DNA of 64,000 nucleotides from an uncultured Gemmatimonadota bacterium (GCA_964348165.1 CAYGCC010000074.1:5128-69127), one strand, 5' to 3'; shown: positions 9,566-64,000, counted from the stretch's first letter. Program-made: numbers and translations. The notes: generated by a model from the letters alone, not told the origin.

Positions 9566-12500
9566 ATGATCGCGATGCGTTACCGGCTTCTTAGCTGCTT
9601 AGCCGCTTGGTCCCTGCTCGTCACACCCAACCTAGAGGCGCAGGAGCCGGCCAAGAGCGAATGGGATGTGGAGGCGGACCACGGACCCTCGCGAACGCTC
9701 GAGTTCGAGACGGACGAGGGGACCTGGATGAACCTCGACGTGAGCCCGGACGGCCGCTGGGTCGTCTTCGACCTGCTGGGCGAGATCTACCGAGTTCCGA
9801 TTCGGGGTGGCGACGCCGAGCTGCTCTCCGGCGGCGTCTCTTACGAGCACCAGCCGCGCTATAGCCCCGACGGGCGGACCATCGCCTTCGTCAGCGATCG
9901 CAGCGGCATCGACAACATCTGGTTGATGGATGCCGACGGCTCGAATCGGCGACAGTTGACCAAAGAGAAAGACTCGCTTCCCACTGCCCCGGTCTGGGCG
10001 CCCGACGGTCAGTACGTGGTGGTGAAGCGGCACGTGCGGAGCACGCGCTCGCTGGGGGGTGGCGAGCTGTGGATGTATCACCTGCGGGGCGGCTCGGGGG
10101 TCAAGCTGGTCGAGAAGTTGAGCTTCACCTCCGAGCTAAACGAGCCGATGCTCTCCCCGGACGGCCGCTACGTCTATTACGTCTTCGCCGGTCCCTTCGA
10201 TTACAACCGCGACGTCCACGACGGGATCTTTCAGATCAATCGTTACGACCGGGAGAGCGGCGAGGTCGAGCCGGTAACCCGCGGGCCCGGCGGCGCGATC
10301 CGTCCCACGCCCTCACCCGACGGGCGCGCCGTCGCCTTCATCCGTCGCGTCGGGACAAACACCGTGCTCTTCATCCGCGATCTCGAGACCGGGGTCGACC
10401 GACCGCTCTTCAACGGACTGGAGAAGGACCAGATGGAGACCTGGACGGTGCACGGCGCCTACCCGGCCTTCGCCTGGACGCCCGACTCGCGGCGGATCGT
10501 GATCAACTTCGGCGGCAAGCTCTGGTCGCTGGACGCCGGCACGGGCCAGCCGGCGGCCGTCCCGTTCCGCGCGGCCGTCAGCCAGCGCATCACCGAGGCG
10601 CTGCATTTCGACTATCCGATCGCCGACGACTCCCTGCGCGCCCGCCTGATCCGCTGGCCGACGATCACCCCGGACGGCCGCCGGCTCGTCTTTCAGGCGG
10701 TGGGCCACATCTACCAGATGGGGCTGCCGAGCGGGAAGCCGCAGCGGGTCACCGACCTGGCGGCGCTGGAGTACGCGCCCGCCTTGTCGCCCGACGGCCG
10801 CTCGCTCACTTTCGTCACCTGGGACGACGACGAGGGCGGCCAAATCTGGCGCGTGCAGCTCCCGCGTCCCGGACAGCGGGCCCGGCCCCAGCAACTCACC
10901 GCCACGCCCAACCAGTACGCGAACCCGGTCTTCTCACCTGACGGCGGCCGCATCGCCTTCGTGCGCGGGAGCGGACGCGCCAATCGCGGCCAGGACCTCG
11001 GGGCCGAGCTGTACCTGGAGATCCACACGATGTCCGCCCAGGGCGGCGCGTCGCAGCTGGTCACCACCACGGCCAACCGGGGCGCGAACCGCCGCATGCC
11101 CCGGCCACGCTGGAGCGCCGACGGCACGCGGCTGCTCTATCAAGAAAGCGATGAGGACAAGACGTACCTGACCAGCGTCAAGCTGGATGGGACCGACAAG
11201 CGCCACCTGATGGAGAACGAGCGTGCGGAAGAGATCGTCCCGTCGCCGGACGGCAAGTGGGTCGCCTTCAAGGAGCTGCACAACGTGCACGTGGCGCCGC
11301 TACCGATGGCGGGCGCCGACCCGCTGAAGATCGAGGCCGGAGGCGCCGGCGTGCCGGTAAAGACGCTGACGCGATACGGCGGCGACTGGATCGACTGGTC
11401 GCGCGACAGCCGCAGCGTGAGCTATGTGCTCGGGCCGACGGTTTACCGTCATACGCTCGAAACGATCTTCGCCGAGGAAGAGGAGAGCGAGGAAGAAGAG
11501 GCGAGCGAATCGGAAGAAGAAACGAAGCCGAACCATGTCTTCGAGGGTGATCTCTTCGAGATCGCGCTCGCGGTTCCCAAGGCGCGTCCCAGCGGCGCAC
11601 TAGCGCTGACGGGCGCCCGCCTCATAACGATGCGCGGTGACGAGGTGATCGCCAACGGCACGATCGTCGTCGACGGGACCCGTATCGTGGCCGTGGGCGC
11701 GTCGAGCCAGGTGCAGGTGCCGCGCGGGGCCCGGGTCATCGATGTGGCCGGCAAGACGATCATCCCGGGACTGGTGGACGTGCACGCCCACATGGGTTAC
11801 TCCGCCCTCGACATCAATCCACAGCGCGAGTGGCGCTACTACGCCAACCTCGCCTACGGCGTCACCAGCACGCTCGACCCTTCGGCGAGCACGCAGGCGG
11901 TCTTCGCCCAGGCGGAGATGGTGGACGCCGGTCTGATGCTCGGGCCGCGCATCTACTCCACCGGGTTCATCCTCTACGGTGCCGAGAACGCCAACAAGGC
12001 GGTGATCAACAGCCTGGATGACGCCCGCTATCACATCCGCCGCCTCAAGGCGCAGGGCGCGACGGCGGTGAAGAGCTACAACCAGATGAGGCGCGACGTG
12101 CGCCAGTGGGTCATCGAGGCGGCACGCGAGGAAGGCATCCTGGTGGTGCCGGAAGGCGGCTCGATGTACCAGCAGAACATTAGCATGGTGCTGGACGGAC
12201 ATACCGGCATCGAGCACGCCATCCCGATCGCACCCCTCTACCGAGACGCGCTTCAGCTCGTCGGGCGCAGCCGCACCGGCTACACGCCCACGCTCGTCGT
12301 CGGGTATGGCGGCATCTGGGGTGAGAACTACTGGTATCAGCACTACGACGTATACGAGAACGAGCGGCTGTTACAGTTCACGCCGCGCGGCATCCTCGAC
12401 TCTCGCGCCCGCCGTCGAATGCTGATTCCCGAGGACGAATGGAACCACATCGAGCTGGCGAAGGCGGCGAAAGCGATCGTGGAAGCCGGCGGCCGCGTGC

Positions 12501-53870: not shown

Positions 53871-54713
53871 TCATGTCCTCGTTCCGCCTCTCGCTGGCAG
53901 TTCCGCCAGGCCGAGGCGTGCTCGCACCTCGCGATTCCTCCGGATCCGCCGCCGGACCTGTCGGTTCCGCTCCTCCACCTCTGCATCGCGATATGGCCGA
54001 GCGTGCTCCAGGTGCAGGAGGGGCGCCCGGAAACGAATGCTCTTGCCACGCACCCCCAGGTTCTCGAGCCGCTCTCCCAGCGCCCGGTCCTCGCCCCCAT
54101 ACCCGAGGTCCATGTCGAACCCGTTTACCTCGACGAGATGTCGCCGCCACGTCGAGGCGTTCATCCCATTCCATGTGGGTGCGGTCGGCGTGAGGCAGTC
54201 GAGCAAGTAGGCGAGGCGCTGCGACCGAAGGAGGCGAAGCCGACGACGCCCAGGCCTCCAGCCATTCCGCAGGAGCCAGCGCCGGTCCATGACTCGTCCG
54301 CTGCTGACGTCGTCCACCGTAATTATGTCAGTGAGCCCTGCGGGCAACCGCAGCGCCCCTCCCGAGAGAAACCGGCCCGGCTGGGCAAGCCGGGCATGTG
54401 CTGCGACGAAGTCGTCTCCCGGTACGCAATCCCCATCGGAAAAGATCAAGTAATCGGCGTCTGTGGCGAGTATGGCACGGTTCAGGATTTCCGTTTTACG
54501 GAAGCCGATGTCGTCGTGCCAAACGTGCGTCAATTCGAAACCGGTTTCCGCCTTTACGCGGTCAATCACGGCTAGGGTTTGCGGCCCGGAGCCATCGTCG
54601 GCCACGATCAACTCGAAGTCCCGGCGTGACTGGCGCGCATATCCCCAGAGCACTCTTTCCAAGTGCTCCGGCTGATTGTAGGTGCTCAGGATCACCGCGA
54701 TGCGACGGTTCAT
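53871..54713 (-). CDS. Glycosyltransferase family 2
   Basis: MNRRIAVILSTYNQPEHLERVL…ELIVADDGS, with DxD context FSDGD. Confidence 0.8.
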   Translation of the reverse strand: MNRRIAVILSTYNQPEHLERVLWGYARQSRRDFELIVADDGSGPQTLAVIDRVKAETGFELTHVWHDDIGFRKTEILNRAILATDADYLIFSDGDCVPGDDFVAAHARLAQPGRFLSGGALRLPAGLTDIITVDDVSSGRVMDRRWLLRNGWRPGRRRLRLLRSQRLAYLLDCLTPTAPTWNGMNASTWRRHLVEVNGFDMDLGYGGEDRALGERLENLGVRGKSIRFRAPLLHLEHARPYRDAEVEERNRQVRRRIRRNREVRARLGLAELPARGGTRT

Positions 54714-55002: not shown

Positions 55003-56175
55003 GTGCCTGTCATGCCGGAAACGCTAACCGTACTGGAGGCGACCGGGAAGCTCGGCGTGGGTGAAGTCGAAACCCATGTGAGCCGACTGGCGATGGGTCT
55101 CATCCGGCGCGGTCACCGTGTCATCCTGCTGAACGAGAAGGGCGGCGGTTTCGGTGAGGAGGCCCGGAAGGCGGGCGCCGAGCTGCTGAGCGTCCCCTTC
55201 GATGAGACGGGCCGCCGCCAGGTTACCGACCGGGTCAAGCCGGGCAGCGTCGATCTCGTCCACACGCACAACTACGGCGCCGCCCGCTTCGCCGCGCCCC
55301 TCGCCCGGGCACTGGGCGTGCCGCACCTGCTGACGGTGCATGGGCTGCGGCCCTGGTACAAGCGCGCCCTGTTCCGCGATTGGGGCGATACCGTCCTGAC
55401 GGTCAGCGAGGCCGGCCGTGACGGCGTAGTAGGACCGTTCGGCCCCCCGGCCGACCGGGTACGCGTCAGCTTCCTCGGCGTCGACACCGACCGCTTTCGT
55501 CCCGGCCTCGACGGCGCCCGAATCCGCGCTGAGTGGCAGCTACCGGAGGACGCACGGTTGGTAGTCAACGTGAGCCGCTTCAGCCATCGCAAGGCGCGGC
55601 CGGCGCGAGCGCTGCTCGAGGCACTGCCGCTGTTGCTTGAGGATGTCCCCGCGGCTCACCTCGTCTTCGTCGGAGATGGGCCGCAGCTGGACCGTCTCCT
55701 CAAGACCGTGGAGCGCGTGAACGACTCCCTGGGACGGCGCGTCGCCACAGTCGTGGGGCACGGCGCTGATATACCCGAGGTGATGAACGCCGCCGACGTC
55801 GTGATCGCCGCCGCCAGCACGGCGATCGAGGCGCTCTCCTGCGGCACGCCGACCATCGCCTTCGGCTCCACCGGCTACTTCGGCATCGTCACGCCCGACA
55901 ATCTGGAGGGCGCGCGCGCCGTCTGCTTCGCCGATCACGGCCACCTGCCGGCGCGAGTCAGTGCCTTGCGTCTCGCCGACGACTTGATCTGGTTGCTGAA
56001 GGATCGCGCGGCAGCGCGCCGCGACGCCGAGGCGATCCGTGCGGCGCTCGCCGAGCGTTACAGCGTCGATCGAATGGCCGAGCAGATTGAGCACGTCTAC
56101 CGCCAAATCGTCGGCGGCGATACAGCCGGCCACGAGAGCACACCGCGCGCCGTGTCCATGGCGCGGCAAGTGTAA
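55003..56175 (+). CDS. Glycosyltransferase family 4 (GT-B)
   Basis: GT-B fold, with C-terminal E…E motif region AASTAIEALSCGTPTIAF. Confidence 0.7.
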   Translation: MPVMPETLTVLEATGKLGVGEVETHVSRLAMGLIRRGHRVILLNEKGGGFGEEARKAGAELLSVPFDETGRRQVTDRVKPGSVDLVHTHNYGAARFAAPLARALGVPHLLTVHGLRPWYKRALFRDWGDTVLTVSEAGRDGVVGPFGPPADRVRVSFLGVDTDRFRPGLDGARIRAEWQLPEDARLVVNVSRFSHRKARPARALLEALPLLLEDVPAAHLVFVGDGPQLDRLLKTVERVNDSLGRRVATVVGHGADIPEVMNAADVVIAAASTAIEALSCGTPTIAFGSTGYFGIVTPDNLEGARAVCFADHGHLPARVSALRLADDLIWLLKDRAAARRDAEAIRAALAERYSVDRMAEQIEHVYRQIVGGDTAGHESTPRAVSMARQV

Positions 56176-56185
56176 TCGATCCTGT

Positions 56186-57289
56186 ATGCGAATCATCATC
56201 CTCGATTCAGCACGCGGTTGGGAAAGCGGCGTCGCCTCAGGTGTCGACGTCGCTCTCGGCCTGGGAGAGGTCGGGCACGACGTCACCGTGGTCTGCCACC
56301 CCCGGGGAGCCATCCACGAGCAACTTGACGGCGATGGACGTGTGACTCTCCGGTCGATCGGGATCCGCTCCCAGCTCAATCTCTACCGCGTCCTTCAGCT
56401 CGCGGCCCTCAACCGGCGCACCACGCCCGATCTCGTGCTCGCCACACGGCCGCGGGACCTGAAGCTCAGCTTCGCGGCGCGCCGGCTGCTGGGCCGATTT
56501 CCCATCGTGCACCGTCACGCAGCGGCGAGCCAGCCGGAGGACGACGGGCCGTACCGCCGCACGTGGGTGCGTGGGCTGCAGGCGCTGGTGGTGAACTCCG
56601 ACACAGGCCGCCGCCGCCTGCTGGAGCGTGTGCCCAGGCTTCAGACCGTAGCCACTCACGTCATCCACAACGGCAAGGACATCTCTCGTTTCCGGCCCAG
56701 GTCCGGGCAGAGAGCGCGGGTACGGACGGAGCTGGGCATCCCCGAGGATGCTTTCATCGTGAGCTTGCACGGAACGCTCGAGCCTACGGTGAAAGGCGAG
56801 CTGCTGATCAGGGCGGTAGCTGCGTTACCTGTCGAGCTGAGAGTGCACGCGCTCATCGTGGGGAGTGGTCCCGCTCGGGCTGAGTTGCGGCGCCTGTCGG
56901 CGGAGTTGCGCGCGCCGGTCATCTTCACTGACACGCGCCAGGAGATCGCCGCAGTGCTGAGCGCCGCGGACGCGGCGGCCGTGCTCTCTACAGAGGCGGG
57001 ATTCTCGGATCGGGCGATCGAGGCGATGGCGTGCGGCCTGCCGATGCTGATCAGCGACACCTCGAGCCACACGGAGCAGGTCGAGGATGGGGTGGAGGGT
57101 GTGCTAATCCCGCCCGATCGCTGGCAGGAGGTTTCCGAAGCCATCCGCTGGTTGGTCAACGATGCGGACGGTCGCGGGCGAATGGGGAAAGCCGCGCGCG
57201 AACGGGCCGTGAGCGAGTTCAGTCGCGATCGGATGGTCAAGCGCTACGACAGCGTGCTGCGAGAGACGGTGGAGACGTACCTCGCCTGA
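56186..57289 (+). CDS. Glycosyltransferase family 4
   Basis: MRIIILD…GVASGVDVALGLGEVGHDVTVVCHP, and C-terminal EAGFSDRAIEAMACGLPMLISD. Confidence 0.75.
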   Translation: MRIIILDSARGWESGVASGVDVALGLGEVGHDVTVVCHPRGAIHEQLDGDGRVTLRSIGIRSQLNLYRVLQLAALNRRTTPDLVLATRPRDLKLSFAARRLLGRFPIVHRHAAASQPEDDGPYRRTWVRGLQALVVNSDTGRRRLLERVPRLQTVATHVIHNGKDISRFRPRSGQRARVRTELGIPEDAFIVSLHGTLEPTVKGELLIRAVAALPVELRVHALIVGSGPARAELRRLSAELRAPVIFTDTRQEIAAVLSAADAAAVLSTEAGFSDRAIEAMACGLPMLISDTSSHTEQVEDGVEGVLIPPDRWQEVSEAIRWLVNDADGRGRMGKAARERAVSEFSRDRMVKRYDSVLRETVETYLA

Positions 57290-57317
57290 ACTCGTAACTC
57301 CAGACGGCCGGGACAAC

Positions 57318-57975
57318 ATGGCCCTGCGGTCTGGACGCTTGCTCCAGCGACGGCTGGCCCACACAAAGCCCTGGACACCGGTCGGCCGCCTCACGGTTCG
57401 TCGCCAGCGACTACCTCCTCGCCAAGCAGGGCCTGTTCCCCATCTGGACTACACCTATTTCCATGTCCTTCACCCGATCGCCCCCTACTCGCTGCTTTTC
57501 CTTGTGACCGAACACCTGCTCCTGTCCGCCCGGCTTTTCTCCGTCGTCTGCAGCCTGATCATGCTGGCCCTGATCGGCGGGTACGCAGCCAAGCTGTTCA
57601 CTGACGCCGATCGCGCATGGAGAGTCGGCGTCGGCCTGGGGTGCGTCGTCCTCCTAGTGGGCAATCCACTGTTCAGTTACACCTACGGTCGCGCCTGGAA
57701 TCACGATGCGTCCCCCATGCTCGCCGTCGCCGGGTTCTCTCTCCCCGGCGCCCTGGCGCCGACCCCTTCGTTCACTCAGTACTTCTACGCACCGCGCCAT
57801 CGCGCCGGCCGACCTGGACGAGTTCCTGCGCGGTCAGCCGCCGGCGGCTATCCTGCTGGGTGTGGAACCGGAAGATCTCGAGCAGCCGTTGCTCGATTAC
57901 GCCCGGATGCACGATTATCGAGCTGTGCCGCTCAACACGGCCATCACATTATGGGTGCCGCCGGCCGGCCGGTAA
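57318..57975 (+). pseudogene. Possible frameshifted remnant of a membrane protein gene (two frames joinable near 57790)
   Basis: Frame 1 gives a TM-rich segment …LLFLVTEHLLLSARLFSVVCSLIMLALIGGYAAKLF…. Frame 2 continues …IAPADLDEFLRGQPPAAILLGVEPEDLEQPLLDYARMHDYRAVPLNTAITLWVPPAGR*. Confidence 0.3.
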
Positions 57976-58054
57976 GATTCACCGCTGGCGAGTCCGCGGA
58001 CTGCGAGAGGTCGCGCGGCGGTTCGAGCCGAGACGGCGCGCCCGTCGAGCGAGA

Positions 58055-59200
58055 GTGCATGTGCGGCTGGTCTATCTGAACTCAGCCCGAGATTGGGGTG
58101 GAGCCGAGAACTGGTCGCTCGAGCTCTGCACCGGCCTGGCCGACCGCGGCCACCAGGTGACCTTCGTCTGCCACCCGGGAAGCGAGTTGCGCCGGCGGCT
58201 GGACGAAGACCGTAGACTGAACATCGTGCCGATACGGATCCGCGGCGAGCTCGACCCTCTGCGCGTCATCCGGTTGGCGCGTCTGTTTCGAGGCGAAAAC
58301 CCGCATATTCTCATCGCTTACCGAACGAAGGATGTGAAGCTCGGCGCGGCGGCCGCCTGGCTGGCCGGCGGGATCCCGCTCGTGCAGGCGCACAAGGCGC
58401 CACATCAACTGCGCAGCACGGCCGTTTACCGGCTGTTCTGGCTGCGCGGCGTGCGCGCGCTGGCGGTACCCTCGCAGGCGATGCGCGCGCTGCTACTGGA
58501 GAAGACTCCGTGGCTGGCGGGCAAGCCGATCCGCGTCATCCCGAACGGCGTCGACACCACCCGCTACCAGCCGAGACCCGAGTTGCGCGAAGATATCCGG
58601 CAGGAGCTCGGCGTCCCACGAGACGTCTTCCTGGTCAGCTATCACGGCCGGGTGGAGAAGCGGAAGAACGTCGACTTGCTGATTCGGGGAGTCGCGCGGG
58701 CTAGGGCGAGCACACCCGTCCACGCCTGCATCATCGGTGACGGGCCGATGATCGACGAGGTGCGCGCGTTGGCGGCGAAGCTGGAGGCACCCGCCACCTT
58801 CACCGGTTTCCGCACTGACGTTGCCCGGCTACTCAGCGCCGCTGACGCCGCCGTCCACCTTTCCACCGCCGAGGGCATGCCGAACTCGGTGCTCGAGGCG
58901 ATGGCGAGCGGTCTCCCGGTGATCGCCAGTGCCGCGACCAGTCACGCCGTGCAGATCGACGATGGCGTGCACGGATTTCTCGTGCCACCGGGGCAGGCCG
59001 AGCCGATCGCCGAGGCGATCCTGAAGTTGGCGCGCGCTCCGGAACTGCGGATGCGTATGGGGCGGGCCGCTCGCAAGCGGGCAGCCGAAGAGTTCAGCCG
59101 TGATACGATGATCGAACGCTACGAGGCCTTCTTCGCGGAGTTCGCCCGGGGGGCGAAAGCACCGGAGCCCGCCTCGCCGCGATCACCGGCGCGCCGGTGA
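58055..59200 (+). CDS. Glycosyltransferase family 4 (GTG start; ORF-track N-terminal extension rejected)
   Basis: VRLVYLNSARDWGGAENWSLELCTGLADRGHQVTFVCHP, and C-terminal EGMPNSVLEAMASGLPVIAS. Confidence 0.75.
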   Translation: MHVRLVYLNSARDWGGAENWSLELCTGLADRGHQVTFVCHPGSELRRRLDEDRRLNIVPIRIRGELDPLRVIRLARLFRGENPHILIAYRTKDVKLGAAAAWLAGGIPLVQAHKAPHQLRSTAVYRLFWLRGVRALAVPSQAMRALLLEKTPWLAGKPIRVIPNGVDTTRYQPRPELREDIRQELGVPRDVFLVSYHGRVEKRKNVDLLIRGVARARASTPVHACIIGDGPMIDEVRALAAKLEAPATFTGFRTDVARLLSAADAAVHLSTAEGMPNSVLEAMASGLPVIASAATSHAVQIDDGVHGFLVPPGQAEPIAEAILKLARAPELRMRMGRAARKRAAEEFSRDTMIERYEAFFAEFARGAKAPEPASPRSPARR

Positions 59201-59220
59201 CACGTACTTCAAAGCCGCGA

Positions 59221-59335
59221 GCTCGAACTTCTCCCGCACCATTCTCGACCGAGATCCGAGCCATCTCATCGAGCCGGTATTCCATGCTGATGGGATAGTC
59301 TTCGCCGGGGTAACGGGCCTAGCCGTCCACCACCA
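59221..59335. repeat. Roughly 115-bp duplicated fragment of the GT9 gene 3' end (second copy 63362..63476)
   Basis: …CCGGTATTCCATGCTGATGGGATAGTCTTCGCCGGGG… aligns with …CCGGTATTCCATGCTGATCGGATAGTCCTCGCCGGGT… at 63414. The minus strand encodes …MEYRLDEMARISVE…, matching GT9 …MEYRRDGMSRITVE…. Confidence 0.6.
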
Positions 59336-59447
59336 GGTCCTCGTAGCGGCGGAGGTCGGCCTCGGGCTGGCCGATAAGGGGCACGACGTCGTCCTCGTCT
59401 GCCACCCCGACAGCGCGATTCGCGAACAGCTCGAGGGTGACGAACGG

Positions 59448-60410
59448 TTGACCCTAAGACCGATCGGAATACGCGCAGAATTGAACCCCTACCGCGTGCT
59501 GCAGCTGGCCAACCTGAATCGGCGGGCGCGACACGACCTCGTGCCCGCCGACAAGCGAAAGGACCTGAAGCTGAGCGTGGCGGCGCGCCGGCTGGCTGGT
59601 GGCTTCCCCATCGTGCACCGCCATGGCGCCCCCAGCGTCCTCCGAGACGGTCCGATCTACCGCCGCGTCTGGGGTCGAGCCATCCAGGCGATGATCGTCA
59701 ACTCCCACACGATGCGTGAACGCCTGCTCGCAGAGTTACCCTGGTTGCAGCGGCTGAGAATCGAGGTCATCCACAACGGCAAAGACACTCGCCGCTATCG
59801 ACCTCTCCCCAGCTCGCGAACGCGCATGCGCACTGAGCTCGGCATCCCGGAAGATGCCTTCGTCGTCAGCTTCCACGGGATGATCCAGCCGCGCAAGAAC
59901 GTAAAGACGCTGGTCCGGGCCGTGGCGTCACTGCCAGCCGGCCTCCGCGTGCACGCTCTGATCACCGGCGGCGGCCCTACCCTACCACAGGTTCGCCGTC
60001 TGGCAACCGAGCTCCGCGCCCCGGTCATCTTCGCCGGCGTCCGTCACGATATACCCGAGGTGTTGAGCGCTGCCGACGCCGCCGCTCACCTGTCCGAGGC
60101 CGAAGGCTTCTCTAATTCGGTTACCGAGTCGATGGCGTGTGGGCTTCCCCTGATCCTCAGCGACGCCACGAGTCATCGGGAGCAGGTGGATGACGGCATC
60201 CAGGGTCTGCTGGTCCCAGCGGGAGAGGTCAGCGCCGTCGCCGATGCGATCCGTTGGTTGGCGACGGATCCGGAGGGCCGGTCGCGCCTGGGCGCCGCGG
60301 CGCGGCAGCGCGCGGTCAAGGAGTTCAGCCGCGAGCTTATGGTCGAACGGTATGAGAAGGTTCTCGGGGAAACGGTCGCGGCGTACCGCTCCGCCGATCG
60401 CGAGGACTAG
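59448..60410 (+). CDS. Glycosyltransferase family 4 paralog of 56186..57289, N-terminally truncated and possibly a pseudogene
   Basis: Alignable over its full length with the 56186 gene product. Homology continues about 55 codons upstream of the first in-frame start (TTG) with no ATG/GTG/TTG available. Confidence 0.55.
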   Translation: MTLRPIGIRAELNPYRVLQLANLNRRARHDLVPADKRKDLKLSVAARRLAGGFPIVHRHGAPSVLRDGPIYRRVWGRAIQAMIVNSHTMRERLLAELPWLQRLRIEVIHNGKDTRRYRPLPSSRTRMRTELGIPEDAFVVSFHGMIQPRKNVKTLVRAVASLPAGLRVHALITGGGPTLPQVRRLATELRAPVIFAGVRHDIPEVLSAADAAAHLSEAEGFSNSVTESMACGLPLILSDATSHREQVDDGIQGLLVPAGEVSAVADAIRWLATDPEGRSRLGAAARQRAVKEFSRELMVERYEKVLGETVAAYRSADRED

Positions 60411-61579
60411 CGATCGATTAGCAGCGCCTGGGCAAACCGCGTATAGACCTCCTCGGCGCTCCGTCGCCAGGTGAAGGTGGCGGCGAACTCTCGTGCGCGC
60501 CTGCCCATCTCGGCCCGCACTCCGTCCTCCCCGGCCAGGCTGATCAGCGCCTCAGCCACCTGCTCCGCCGTCGGATAATAGGGCAAGACGATTCCCGTGT
60601 CTCCGTGGCGCACCGCCTCCGCCACACCTCCAGTATCGCAGGCGATCGATGGCACGCCGCGGGTCGCGGCCTCCAGATAAACCAGGCCCAGACCTTCCAA
60701 GCGGCTGGGCGTTTCCTGGCTCAACTGGATGAACAGGTCGGCGGCGTCGCACGCCTCTACCAGCTCGTCGTCGCCGAGGGCCCCGAGCATGAGGAGCCGC
60801 ACCGATCCAGACTCCGCCTTGGCCCTCAGGTCCCGTGCGTAGTCCTCGGGACCGCCGCCGACAACCACGTAGACTAGCCGCCGGCGCAGCGAAGCGGGCA
60901 GCAGCGACAGGCCCTCTATGACCCGCTGATGACCTTTATCGGGGACGCGTCGGGCCACGGTGAGCACGACCGTCTCGTCAGGTGAAACCTCCCACCGCGC
61001 CCGCACCTGCGCCCGGTCCGTGCTCGGGGTCTCGAACCAGCGTGGCCCCACTCCCGGGTAGGACACGAAAACCGTGTCCTCTCGCACCTTGAAGGTGTTG
61101 ATCAAGATCTCGCGCACGCTGCGGCTGATTGCCGAGGTGCAGGCGACGCGCCGAAACGCCCGGAACATCCAGAGTCGCGGGCTCAAGTCATTGTGGTAAC
61201 GCAACAGCTCGGTCCCGTATACGGTGAAGAAGTACGTTCTCACCAAGCGCATCCTGGAGAGCGCCGTCAGAGCCATCTGGGCGGGCGGGTCGACGGCGTG
61301 GACGATGTCGGGCTTGCGCAGCCGGATCTCGCGACGGCAGCGCGCCGTGAACTTCGCGAGCTTATCTAGACTCAGTACGCTGCACGTTGCGCCGGGAAAA
61401 CGAGAGACCTCGTACGGCTGCGCCGCATCCCATTCAGCGGTGTTCCCGTGATAAGCCGGAGCCAGAACGCGCGCCTCGTGACCGATCGCCGCTGCTCCGC
61501 TCGCCAGGCCGTGGGCTACCGTGGCGATTCCCCCGTGAAAGGGCGGGAATTCATGGGTGAGGATGAGGATCCGATGCAT
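60407..61579 (-). CDS. Glycosyltransferase family 4
   Basis: MHRILILTHEFPPFHGGIATVAHGLA…, and C-terminal EGLGLVYLEAATRGVPSIACD. Confidence 0.8.
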   Translation of the reverse strand: MHRILILTHEFPPFHGGIATVAHGLASGAAAIGHEARVLAPAYHGNTAEWDAAQPYEVSRFPGATCSVLSLDKLAKFTARCRREIRLRKPDIVHAVDPPAQMALTALSRMRLVRTYFFTVYGTELLRYHNDLSPRLWMFRAFRRVACTSAISRSVREILINTFKVREDTVFVSYPGVGPRWFETPSTDRAQVRARWEVSPDETVVLTVARRVPDKGHQRVIEGLSLLPASLRRRLVYVVVGGGPEDYARDLRAKAESGSVRLLMLGALGDDELVEACDAADLFIQLSQETPSRLEGLGLVYLEAATRGVPSIACDTGGVAEAVRHGDTGIVLPYYPTAEQVAEALISLAGEDGVRAEMGRRAREFAATFTWRRSAEEVYTRFAQALLIDR

Positions 61580-61915
61580 CGCTCAGCAGCCTGATGTCGG
61601 GCGCGCAGTTAGCCGTGCCGGAAGAGGCAATGTACGAGGCTCCCAGATTCCCCGTAAGCCTTGAGCCTCGGTCGCCGATAGATGATTAAGTGCCGCCGGG
61701 CGAAGCCGCCTCGCCGCCCCATCCGCTGAACGGTCGACAGCTACCAACCCACCGGCTATGGTAGGGGACGCGCACATAGCTCGTCCGACGAGCCACCACG
61801 GCGGGCCAGGAAGAGGCGCCGCGGGCGGCGGCCTGGTTTCAGACGTAGCTGTCAATACGCGACGACTTGTCGCTCGCGAATAAGCTTCACCCGCTGTCGA
61901 GAAGGGCGATCAGAC

Positions 61916-62506
61916 ATGCTTTTTCTAAGTGTTCTGAGAAAGATTCGCACGTCCCTGTTGCGGCCGGGCATCCTCGGGGGCCCTGGCAAAGTTTCCCGAG
62001 CGAGAAGACACAGCAACAGATGGCTTCGGCAGCATTGCCGCACGATCGAAGGTGACGTGTTGTCGATCGGCAGCGGGACGGACGCGGATGGAGAGGGCAA
62101 CCACTACAGCGATTATTTTGTCAAAGCATCTTCTTATACGACATCCGACTTCTCTCACGATTTCGGCTGTGACCTCACACTCGATGTTCGCTCGATGCCG
62201 CAGATAAAGGACGAATCGTATGATTGCATATTCTGCAGCGGCGTCCTGGAACATGTAGACGACGTAACGGATGGGCTCAACGAGATCACTCGAATTCTCA
62301 AAGTTGGCGGGACGTTATTGCTGGGCCTACCGTTTCGGCAGGCGATTCATATGGCTCCGAACGACTACTGGAGATTCACTGAATACGGGATCAGGCATAT
62401 GCTGAGAATTTCATATGAGATTCAACATGTGGAGCCAATCGACACCCGGGCGAAAAACTTCCCAGCCACGTACTGGGTACGAGCCAGGAAGACGCGGAAG
62501 AGCTAA
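61916..62506 (+). CDS. Class I SAM-dependent methyltransferase with markedly lower GC than its neighbours
   Basis: VLSIGSGTDADG (motif I) and FCSGVLEHVDD. The sequence is visibly AT-richer than the flanking sequence. Confidence 0.7.
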   Translation: MLFLSVLRKIRTSLLRPGILGGPGKVSRARRHSNRWLRQHCRTIEGDVLSIGSGTDADGEGNHYSDYFVKASSYTTSDFSHDFGCDLTLDVRSMPQIKDESYDCIFCSGVLEHVDDVTDGLNEITRILKVGGTLLLGLPFRQAIHMAPNDYWRFTEYGIRHMLRISYEIQHVEPIDTRAKNFPATYWVRARKTRKS

Positions 62507-62604
62507 ACAATCCATCGAATAGACGTGACCGTCGTACCAGCCACGCGGGCGGTTAAGCCACTCTGAGACTCCGTGCAGGAGGGTCACACAGCCAGGTTGA
62601 GCGT

Positions 62605-63270
62605 CTAGCCGGAGCGCAAGGTGACTCGAGCCATTCGCACCTTCAGAGTGCCCCAGTCTTTCTCGAAGTGATCCTCTGGCTCCAAAATCTCCACGTCATA
62701 CTGCTGGCGGTTCAATGAGTTGATCAGATGCTGGCAGCCAACAGCTTGGACTTGCGGTTCCGTGTTGGTGTAGTAGTCGTCGAAGAGCACCACGGTGTCG
62801 GCGGTCATCACCTTTCTGATCTGCTCCCAATCGGCTGCGATCGTTTCGATCGAATGGCCCCCGTCGATGAAGACAAAATCAACGGTGGTGCCCGTGCCCG
62901 TGATCTCCTGCACGAACGCCGGCAGCGTCTCGGACGTGTAGCCGATGAACAGTCGAACCTGGGCACCTGTCTCCTCCAACCTTCGTGTCACCTCGGCGGC
63001 TGGCGGGGGCTTCTTCGAAAACTCCCAGTCCAAATCGTGATCCGTCAATCGCTCAAACAGGTCGAACCCGAAATACGCGACCTGCTCGATGGGATGGAAG
63101 ATGCCCGCGGTTTCGATCATCTGTCGCGCATGAACGCCATCGTAGGTGCCGATCTCGAGCAGTGTGCGGCAGCGTCGTCGGTACACGGTCTCGAGCAAGT
63201 GGCGGTATCGGCTCTTCGCCATCCGGATCAGGCGGCGCCGATACACAAGTCGTCTCAGGAATCTGGGCAT
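62605..63270 (-). CDS. Class I SAM-dependent methyltransferase (TylF/CmcI-like, Methyltransf_24-type)
   Basis: LLEIGTYDG and FVFIDGGHSIE motifs. Confidence 0.65.
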   Translation of the reverse strand: MPRFLRRLVYRRRLIRMAKSRYRHLLETVYRRRCRTLLEIGTYDGVHARQMIETAGIFHPIEQVAYFGFDLFERLTDHDLDWEFSKKPPPAAEVTRRLEETGAQVRLFIGYTSETLPAFVQEITGTGTTVDFVFIDGGHSIETIAADWEQIRKVMTADTVVLFDDYYTNTEPQVQAVGCQHLINSLNRQQYDVEILEPEDHFEKDWGTLKVRMARVTLRSG

Positions 63271-63324: not shown

Positions 63325-64000
63325 TCAGACAGACGTGCGCTTGATGTAGTTGCTGAGCGCCAGCTCGAGCTTTTCCGCCACCATCTCCACCGTGATCCGA
63401 CTCATCCCATCGCGCCGGTATTCCATGCTGATCGGATAGTCCTCGCCGGGTTGGCGCGCGTAGCCGTCGACCACCAGCTCTTGATACATCCGGTAGGGTC
63501 CCGAACGCTTCGGGTTCGTGTAGCCGTATAGCCCCACCACCGGCGTCCCCAGCGCCCGGGCGATGTGCAGCGGGCCGGTGTCGGGGCTGACCAGCAGAGC
63601 CGCGCCATCCACGAGATAGATGAGCTTTCGCAGATCGTCACCCAGCTCGTTCAGCGGACGCGCCCGGCTTCGGCGCACGACTTCGGCAGCCGCCGCCCGT
63701 TCCCGCGGCGCTGGGCCGCCGATGAGCACAGTCTGGAAACCGTAGTCGCCCTCGATGATCTCGAGCAAGCGGCCGTAGCGTTCAGGTGGCCAATCCTTGT
63801 CGGGCTTGCTGCTACCCACGACGACGGCACACACCGGCCGATCGATCGCGTCAAAGAAGCGTCGCTGTTGCTCACGTTCCTCGGCCGTGATCACGATCCC
63901 CCACTCGAGAGGTTCCGGCTCGATGCCCAGGTATTCGAGGAACTCGAAATACTGATCTTGCACGTGCTGATTGGCACGAGACGGGATGCGGTGCGTCGTA
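63325..64000 (-). CDS. Glycosyltransferase family 9 (LPS heptosyltransferase-like), 5'-partial; the gene continues beyond the window end
   Basis: C-terminal GT9 region VVVGSSKPDKDWPPERY…GPAPRE…LVSPDTGPLHIARALGTPVVGLYG. The frame is open to position 64000. Confidence 0.75.
   Translation of the reverse strand, partial: TTHRIPSRANQHVQDQYFEFLEYLGIEPEPLEWGIVITAEEREQQRRFFDAIDRPVCAVVVGSSKPDKDWPPERYGRLLEIIEGDYGFQTVLIGGPAPRERAAAAEVVRRSRARPLNELGDDLRKLIYLVDGAALLVSPDTGPLHIARALGTPVVGLYGYTNPKRSGPYRMYQELVVDGYARQPGEDYPISMEYRRDGMSRITVEMVAEKLELALSNYIKRTSV

Follow-up and report, generated by a model that had tools for sequence, protein, structure and literature searches.

Mosaic gene clusters for O antigen, capsule and LPS core, for example the pneumococcal cps loci, carry remnant genes at recombination junctions, and the group D2 rfb cluster of Salmonella was formed from the D1 and E1 clusters. 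The locus described here resembles them in that conserved flanks enclose a variable island of glycosyltransferase genes and in containing gene remnants; it differs in its host, an uncultured Gemmatimonadota bacterium, and in a joint that contains neither an insertion sequence nor a long repeat. A second likeness is to homology-facilitated illegitimate recombination (HFIR), as defined in PMC3240628, and to the orphaned 3' remnants left after cassette displacement, discussed in PMC5361080, in T6SS effector/immunity arrays and Rhs loci. As in these systems, the new segment is joined at one end without homology apart from a few nt of microhomology, its other side would fall within a homologous gene (here GT9a), and the displaced resident gene persists as a 3' stump.

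Two glycosyltransferase families meet at the joint. GT4 enzymes are retaining glycosyltransferases of the GT-B fold (PF13439 plus PF00534) and have the EX7E motif as their signature; the GT9 heptosyltransferase family (PF01075) includes the WaaC/WaaF-like enzymes of the LPS core. In the window, by which we mean the whole 64,000-nt stretch of DNA that was analyzed, a GT4 gene body that we call C' abuts T, the 3' end of a GT9 gene on the opposite strand (Table 1). The initial annotation had seen here a rearrangement inside a glycan biosynthesis locus that left a start-less, 5'-truncated GT4 gene beside a GT9 3' remnant, and this part of it holds. As a genome scar, the truncated GT4/GT9-tail fusion is of an ordinary type. 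We consider it likely that a single non-homologous joint unites two versions of the island here, that C' and T flank it on either side, and that C' is an orphaned relic.

Table 1. Features of the glycosyltransferase island, in window coordinates.
Feature	Coordinates	Strand	Description	Basis
Z	55003..56175	+	Intact GT4; opens the plus-strand gene run	PF13439/PF00534
A	56186..57289	+	Intact GT4, 367 aa; the paralog used in the initial annotation	Directly 3' of Z
PMT_2-like membrane glycosyltransferase remnant	57423..57960	+		tblastn with L020 PMT2 (524 aa) and the L018 partial gene
B	58055..59200	+	Intact GT4, 379-381 aa; stop TGA 59198-59200	Pfam
Palindrome	59183..59200		Perfect 18-nt palindrome TCACCGGCGCGCCGGTGA	Read from sequence
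T	59183..59351	-	169 nt; final 56 codons (stop counted) of a gene in the GT9 heptosyltransferase family	Alignments
Joint	59346..59352		Non-homologous	Nucleotide-level three-way comparison (L021/L019 GT9a, six C orthologs); blastn end points
C'	59352..60410	+	GT4 body; begins at codon 19-21 and runs through the stop	
ORF annotated in public assemblies	59448..60410	+	TTG start, 320/321 aa	
D	60407..61579	-	Intact GT4, PimB-like, convergent with C'	Pfam
Class I SAM methyltransferase	61916..62506	+	196 aa	Pfam
Methyltransf_24 gene	62605..63270	-	221 aa; downstream of the resident GT9	Pfam
GT9a* (resident)	63325..64000	-	Runs past the window end	PF01075, E 1.7e-32

T is matched in tblastn by residues 295-347 of the GT9a protein from the related locus L019, and its homology is to the 55 C-terminal residues of GT9a. 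Whereas the resident GT9a* is an intact member of the family, T has an in-frame TAG in place of a Tyr codon (TAC to TAG) and a 1-nt insertion, and a stretch of this length with a nonsense codon and a frameshift is a remnant, not a gene. A GT9 3' fragment of about 115 bp had been reported at 59221..59335; the match is real and well above what chance would give (106 nt at 82% identity; 124 nt at 83% by blastn, E of about 1e-30), but that interval is too short. The second copy of this "repeat" is the 3' end of GT9a* (63359-63492). The core of T is 86.6% identical to GT9a of locus L021, 83.6% to that of L019 and 79.9% to GT9a*, and its differences from L021 favor third codon positions (3/5/15). 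Over the last 11 codons, identity is 85 to 87% to L021/L019 GT9a versus 43% to GT9a*, whose own ending is unrelated. The palindrome holds the stop codons of both B (plus strand) and T (minus strand), so that the two overlap tail to tail; the same 18-nt overlap joins B and GT9a in L021 (B ends at 11146 and GT9a starts at 11129), and L019, where GT9a likewise overlaps B tail to tail, has a near-identical sequence. A 63-aa minus-strand ORF at 59094..59285 was considered as a gene and rejected, since it starts at an internal Met of the GT9 remnant and then leaves the remnant's frame.

C' retains much of a GT4 enzyme. The annotated ORF matches PF00534 (Glycos_transf_1) with an E-value of 2.8e-31 over profile positions 2-172 of 172, keeps EX7E as EGFSNSVTE, and covers most of Glyco_transf_4 (PF13439), where the match begins only at profile position 7. 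A full-length C ortholog matches BshA (2jjm), PimB' (3okc), MshA (3c48) and Alr3699 (4xso) with E-values of 1e-15 to 1e-21. What distinguishes C' from these enzymes is its 5' end. The reading frame is open from 59112 (stop at 59109-59111), and we confirmed that it contains no ATG, GTG or TTG up to 59447, that is, before the TTG at 59448; these codons are likewise absent in frame upstream of the TTG in L001 and L002. As proposed earlier, GT4 homology continues upstream of this TTG, though for 32 to 34 codons (to 59346/59352) rather than about 55. TTG 59448 corresponds to residue 53 of the full-length orthologs, and hence 18 to 20 codons are missing altogether. In the AF2 model of the C ortholog P0003 (pLDDT 93), strand β1 comprises residues 2-7, the following loop residues 8-15 and helix α1 residues 16-28. 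Mapped onto this model, the GT-B N-domain of C' is without the predicted strand β1 and the Gly-rich loop, and its helix α1 has lost its start (first turn); any product made from TTG 59448 would begin at strand β3. R2, S8 and R10, which are conserved at 90% or more in 44 homologs, all lie within the segment missing from C'.

At the joint, homology to antisense GT9 stops at 59351 and unambiguous homology to C begins at 59352. The GCGGCG at 59346-59351 is attributable to either parent, which limits the microhomology to at most 6 nt, and beyond it the parents share no homology at this point. To the left, positions 9947-11296 of L021 are colinear with 57997-59351 of the window at 85.7% nucleotide identity, from B into GT9a up to 59351; beyond that, L021 GT9a aligns again at 63359-63999. 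The gene order in L021 is Z, A, MT, B, GT9a, GT9b and epimerase. To the right, C' is 82 to 86% identical at the amino acid level to full-length orthologs of 367 to 372 aa (P0002-P0004, L030 and L031; loci L018, L019 and L030), all of which align to the window from 59346 on. C lies after Z in L018, L019 and L030 and after B in L022; by synteny, the slot directly after Z is thus filled by C in the former three and by A in our window. The flanks of the island are conserved, with ABC permeases on one side and GT9a-GT9b-epimerase on the other, the latter block in all relatives, and the gene content between them is different in each relative examined. The hierarchy of identities of C' and T indicates that the "repeats" are homologous genes from two versions of the locus, not a fresh duplicate made within it.

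In the likely scenario, a left version, Z-A-(PMT2 remnant)-B lying tail to tail with GT9a as in L021, was cut within GT9a with 55 codons left before the stop, and a right version, which continued C-D-methyltransferase-methyltransferase-GT9a*, was cut at codon 19-21 of C. Such an event would have retained one intact GT9a, the right-hand copy, and would have brought D and two methyltransferases into a locus that already had A, the positional alternative of C; T and C' would be its by-products. The mechanism may have been a one-sided-homology insertion of the HFIR type, a type marked by short microhomology, here GCGGCG, where one end is joined without homology, or a deletion between two adjacent copies of the locus, which would give the same product. 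This second route, and the lack of a donor-like locus, set our case apart from HFIR as described: a version with an intact C followed by D was found neither by an exact-pattern scan of metagenomes for the C'/D stop overlap nor among homologs of D (at most 68%) nor in a metagenome scan with a C ortholog, and this counts against the proposed union. The latter scan added L030-L033 to the contigs already at hand, all at about 85%. GTDB representative genomes scanned with C' contained only relatives of 42% or less, which indicates that the source lineage is absent from this set. Within the portion of GT9a* inside the window, no switch point that would mark a right-hand homologous crossover was visible relative to L021/L019 (80 to 85% aa), identity being flat.

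Given the lack of a promoter-proximal start and the loss of three N-domain elements predicted from the model (β1, Gly-rich loop, first turn of α1), C' is most probably a relic that was orphaned recently and no longer functions. The main alternative, which we regard as rather unlikely, is that C' still works as an N-terminally shortened GT4, with translation beginning at TTG 59448 or at a non-canonical codon such as CTG 59367, and retains a function, for instance in binding the donor or as a partner subunit. Its 353 codons contain no internal stop or frameshift, the dN/dS against orthologs (0.11 to 0.17) is the same as between intact orthologs, and EX7E and the complete C-terminal domain are intact. 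T is six times shorter than C', yet has both disabling lesions, for which the chance would be about 0.02 if lesions fell uniformly; together with the intact frame, this could mean that C' is still under some constraint. There is a GAGG 9 nt upstream of TTG 59448 and a GGAGG (59351-59355) 11 nt upstream of CTG 59367, and C' sits 3' of co-oriented genes, so that it is probably transcribed. However, a product from the TTG would start at residue 53 without β1, α1, β2 and α2 of the N-domain sheet, and β1 and the Gly-rich loop would be missing from any product. The two SD-like strings are the conserved codons for LEG and (V/A)EV, which are also present in orthologs, and SD sequences are absent from most genes in the window. 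Were the truncation recent on the scale of the dS of 0.5 to 0.8, a low dN/dS would be expected. Two strain variants also argue against function: in L025 one nucleotide is deleted at 59354, a frameshift in the interval from the joint to the TTG, and an Arg replaces an otherwise conserved Ile (both changes lie near a terminus of a short Logan contig and could be errors), and L002 has a 3-nt insertion at 60071 that adds an Ala to the conserved SAADAAA motif. It is quite improbable that truncated C' is made, is maintained by purifying selection and serves as a donor-binding or scaffolding partner of its paralog A or B; if this were true, C' would be a natural functional "half-disabled" GT4. A fusion of B and C' by frameshifting was rejected: it needs a +1 shift and a 49-aa linker antisense to a GT9 gene, and nothing supports it. 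When the alignment was inspected by eye, branch-specific replacements at otherwise invariant positions numbered 8 in the window, 5 in L019 and 2 in L018, which is not distinctive enough to indicate relaxed selection.

The initial annotation attributed the arrangement to a recent duplication of A and of the 3' end of GT9a*, with subsequent rearrangement of the copies. Its product of 59448..60410 does align with A, over 345 residues at 59% identity, and the topology fits a tandem duplication, with a full GT4 paralog to the left and a full GT9 gene to the right of the joint between GT9 tail and 5'-truncated GT4. We nevertheless consider this origin very unlikely. C' is only 59% identical to A versus 82 to 85% to its counterparts in other populations, and A is 79% identical to L021_A, 57 to 60% identical to every C ortholog, and branches outside the entire C clade, including its relative in L020 (69%). 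Sequence comparison thus identifies A and C' as old paralogs, each with its own orthologs. T is likewise closer to GT9a of L021 and L019 than to the resident copy, both in its core (86.6% to L021 versus 79.9%) and in its last 11 codons. An ancient duplication would require that both copies were retained in some lineages and lost in others. Neither repeat, then, is a recent copy of its neighbor in the window, and the union of two island versions would account for both.

It is scarcely credible that the joint is an artifact of co-assembling two strains with different locus versions: several versions do share metagenomes (L019, L021 and L030 all come from GCA_012974985.1), but GCA_012974945.1, GCA_012974965.1 and the Logan assembly of SRR14116346 reproduce the joint to the base, which gives four assemblies counting the window, the further three coming from different samples and assemblers and including one 99.1% strain variant and one with a SNP at 59213, while the 6 nt or fewer shared by the parents are too little for a k-mer graph chimera and the lesions of T are absent from every intact GT9a. 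Because the joint recurs in this way it is not an assembly error, which answers the earlier call to check the assembly at 59200..59450, and no sequencing correction restores a start in the three further assemblies.

For annotation, the consequence is that a glycosyltransferase of 320/321 aa called intact in public assemblies is encoded by a gene truncated at its 5' end, the codon taken as its start being one for an internal Leu. For method, the locus illustrates that a "repeat" in a glycan locus can consist of orthologous pieces of two locus versions and need not reflect duplication. It also provides a base-resolved example of how non-homologous joining reshuffles variable glycosyltransferase islands in uncultured Gemmatimonadota. 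The scar opens no new biological question, and its value lies mostly in annotation and method.

Z is 79% identical at the amino acid level to L021_Z and 70% to Z of L018/L019, and B is 85% identical to L021_B. The stop codons of C' and D overlap within CTAG (sequence 60380-60439), and the nearest relatives of D outside its own population are at most 68% identical. The stretch with the class I SAM methyltransferase gene has a low G+C content (52 to 58%), and the Methyltransf_24 gene is 73.6% identical at the nucleotide level to a copy in L020, which adjoins D there. GT9a* has at least 300 open codons in L002, which extends 228 nt further, and is 85% identical to GT9a of L019 and 80% to that of L021. 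A scan of 58900-60600 for promoters and terminators found nothing. The PMT2 remnant consists of an N-terminal part (aa ~56-158) and a C-terminal part (aa ~417-514) in different frames, about 260 codons having been deleted between them, and this second degraded gene in the same locus shows the island to be in flux. tblastn with L020 PMT2 and the L018 partial gene gave no other match in the 64-kb window, and the 253-aa ORF of the remnant had no match in Pfam. In L025/L026 the remnant shows a 1-nt indel polymorphism at 57435.

In-frame translation, the window repeat search, blastn and tblastn bear out the picture in the initial annotation of a start-less GT4 gene next to a 3' fragment of a GT9 gene. 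The gene, C', is a GT4 by homology, but a functional member needs a start codon and a complete N-domain, and C' has neither. Public assemblies annotate its ORF as 320/321 aa, from TTG 59448, which corresponds to Leu53. The GT4 homology extends upstream of this TTG to about 59346-59352 and the reading frame stays open as far back as the stop at 59109-59111, with no in-frame ATG, GTG, or TTG between that stop and the TTG. The upstream homology, first put at about 55 codons, comprises 32 to 34, and another 18 to 20 codons are missing altogether.

Features of the glycosyltransferase island in the window
Feature	Coordinates	Strand	Remark
GT2 gene	53871-54713	-	between methyltransferase and Z
Z	55003..56175	+	GT4, glycosyltransferase run
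A	56186..57289	+	GT4, glycosyltransferase run
PMT_2-like gene, degraded	57290-58060		homology 57423-57960
B	58055/58061..59200	+	GT4, glycosyltransferase run
T	59183..59351	-	GT9 3' remnant
C'	59352..60410	+	GT4 body
C', called ORF	59448..60410	+	TTG start, ORF listing
Methyltransferase gene	61916..62506	+	
Methyltransferase gene	62605..63270	-	
GT9a*	63325..64000	-	resident GT9

In an AlphaFold2 model of the ortholog P0003 (44 homologs, pLDDT 93.2), β1 lies at residues 2-7, a Gly-rich loop at 8-15, α1 at 16-28, β2 at 32-37, α2 at 42-47, and β3 at 54-57. Because C' begins at residue 19-21 of full-length orthologs, it lacks β1, the GWGGG loop, and the initial turn of α1, and the annotated ORF, with its TTG at Leu53, would begin only at β3. 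R2, S8, and R10 each show at least 90% conservation across the family. In GT-B enzymes the first β-strand/Gly-loop element helps to bind substrate. At its other end, the stop codon of C' overlaps that of D, the GT4 gene facing it, in CTAG at 60407-60410.

The initial annotation correctly saw a rearrangement and a GT4 that is truncated or a pseudogene, but a recent duplication of A and of the 3' end of GT9a* does not fit the data. C' shares 59% identity with A across 345 residues and 51% with B, and it has full-length orthologs (367 to 372 aa) of 82 to 86% identity in a protein-collection search (P0002-P0004) and in L030 and L031; it is thus nearer to genes of other populations than to its neighbors. 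P0006, from a Gemmatimonadota MAG, is a 69% relative. A has its own ortholog (79%) in L021, a 72-kb contig with 81 to 86% nucleotide identity to the window, and is 57 to 60% identical to every C ortholog. These identities make A, B, and C long-diverged paralogs rather than recent copies.

T, the tail of a minus-strand GT9 gene directly upstream of C', is 169 nt long rather than about 115, extends to the stop codon of the gene, and has a TAC-to-TAG nonsense mutation and a 1-nt insertion. The repeat search matched the T region to 63375-63480 (106 nt at 82%), blastn matched T to the resident GT9 over 124 nt (83%, E about 1e-30), and in tblastn the relatives' GT9a proteins matched T over residues 295 to 347 of 349. 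T was not copied from the resident gene (63325): over a 134-nt core, T is 86.6% identical to GT9a of L021, 83.6% to that of L019, and 79.9% to GT9a*, and over the last 11 codons the values are 85%, 87%, and 43%. A perfect 18-nt palindrome, TCACCGGCGCGCCGGTGA (59183-59200), is common to T, L021 and, nearly identical, L019; it carries the TGA of B on one strand and that of GT9a on the other and encodes ARR-stop on both, so that B and the remnant overlap tail to tail, as B and GT9a do in L021 (18 nt). Together, the identity pattern and the palindrome mark T as the remnant of a GT9a natively tail to tail with B. Where T differs from L021, the changes number 3, 5, and 15 at the first, second, and third codon positions, so T was constrained coding sequence until recently.

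The comparison of L021 with the window by blastn is decisive: L021 9947-11296 matches window 57997-59351 at 85.7%, covering B plus 168 nt of GT9a and ending exactly at 59351, and L021 11163-11803 realigns at 63359-63999 (79.8%). The C orthologs all align from 59346 on. The window reads ...CCAGGTCCTCGTA GCGGCG GAGGTCGGCCTCGG... at the joint, L021 GT9a (antisense) ...CCAGATCTTCGTA CCGGCG ATACGGCC..., and the C orthologs ...(T/A)C(C/G) GC(C/G)(G/A)C(C/G) GA(G/A)(G/T)T(C/G)GG.... Either parent could have supplied the hexamer at 59346-59351, with no further sequence in common, and the joint is non-homologous and of the microhomology type.

We hypothesize, as the simplest history, that a genome with the L021-like version (B facing GT9a and GT9b) acquired, or already had adjacent, a second version in which C faced D, followed by the methyltransferase gene MT and by MT24 (another methyltransferase gene) and GT9a* in reverse orientation. 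A non-homologous joint would then have linked GT9a codon ~299/300 (L021 numbering) to C codon 19-21, the other side being resolved inside or beyond homologous GT9a. The pattern is that of homology-facilitated illegitimate recombination, which is homologous at one end and illegitimate at the other (PMC3240628). The same mechanism has been proposed to explain the orphaned 3' remnants that cassette displacement leaves in T6SS and Rhs loci (PMC5361080). A deletion between two copies of the locus in tandem may have occurred instead, as it would yield the same product. Later recombination between the direct repeats T and T* could delete C'-D-MT-MT24 and restore an L021-like arrangement.

Is C' still a working gene? 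It has no internal stops or frameshifts, and its dN/dS against orthologs (0.11 to 0.17; Nei-Gojobori) resembles that among intact orthologs (0.11 to 0.14), with 16 non-synonymous and 50 synonymous changes on its own branch. Hence, either C' was truncated recently on the scale of dS (about 0.5 to 0.8), or it is still constrained. Constraint would account for both scar lesions falling in T (169 nt) while C' (1059 nt) has none (chance about 2%), but the strain variant L025 lacks 1 nt at 59354 and has an I-to-R change at 59470, and in L002 the conserved SAADAAA motif is longer by one Ala codon. We consider C' probably a relic, and continued expression unlikely.

A graph-assembly chimera is implausible because the two parents have no more than 6 nt in common at the joint, which moreover recurs: the assembly check found 59150-59500 identical in L001 (GCA_012974945.1) and L002 (GCA_012974965.1) except for one SNP at 59213, and the joint is also in L025 (Logan assembly of SRR14116346; 99.1% identical across 3.4 kb). 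Strain differences concentrate at 58468-59006, the 3' half of B (24/29 L025-versus-window differences and 10/20 for L001, many non-synonymous), whereas A, T, and C' are nearly invariant; the 3' half of B looks like a between-strain recombination tract.

Gene stumps at recombination joints are well known from mosaic surface-glycan loci; new here is the instance in an uncultured Gemmatimonadota population. Differing gene orders indicate that the island, from the ABC-transporter permeases to the GT9a-GT9b-epimerase block, varies in every relative, and that the position following Z is occupied by either A or C. L021 has Z, A, a methyltransferase, and B facing GT9a, GT9b, and the epimerase. In L019, Z, C, and a methyltransferase face GT9a and GT9b; in L030, Z and C face GT9a; and in L018, Z and C precede a PMT2-like gene. 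L022 has a PMT2-like gene, B, C, and a histidine kinase facing GT9a, and L020 a PMT2-like gene facing MT24 and D, then C and a histidine kinase facing GT9a.

Other scars were seen. The methyltransferase-GT9a spacer of L019 holds about 100 nt of the 3' end of B (L019 5757-5849, window 59087-59183), so B was lost there by deletion. The PMT_2-like membrane glycosyltransferase gene is a second degraded gene of the locus, with about 260 codons deleted internally and the two surviving parts out of frame with each other; in public assemblies it is annotated as a hypothetical protein of 253 or 89 aa, and L025 and L026 have a 1-nt insertion at 57435. Its position is held by the methyltransferase in L021, and the intact gene follows C in L018. 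G+C is 52 to 59% at 61800-63200, spanning both tabulated methyltransferase genes, versus 65 to 70% in the surroundings, a hint that this part of the right-hand segment came from elsewhere. The GT2 glycosyltransferase gene is a further presence/absence difference: neither L021 nor L019 has it, and L018 carries it in the opposite orientation.
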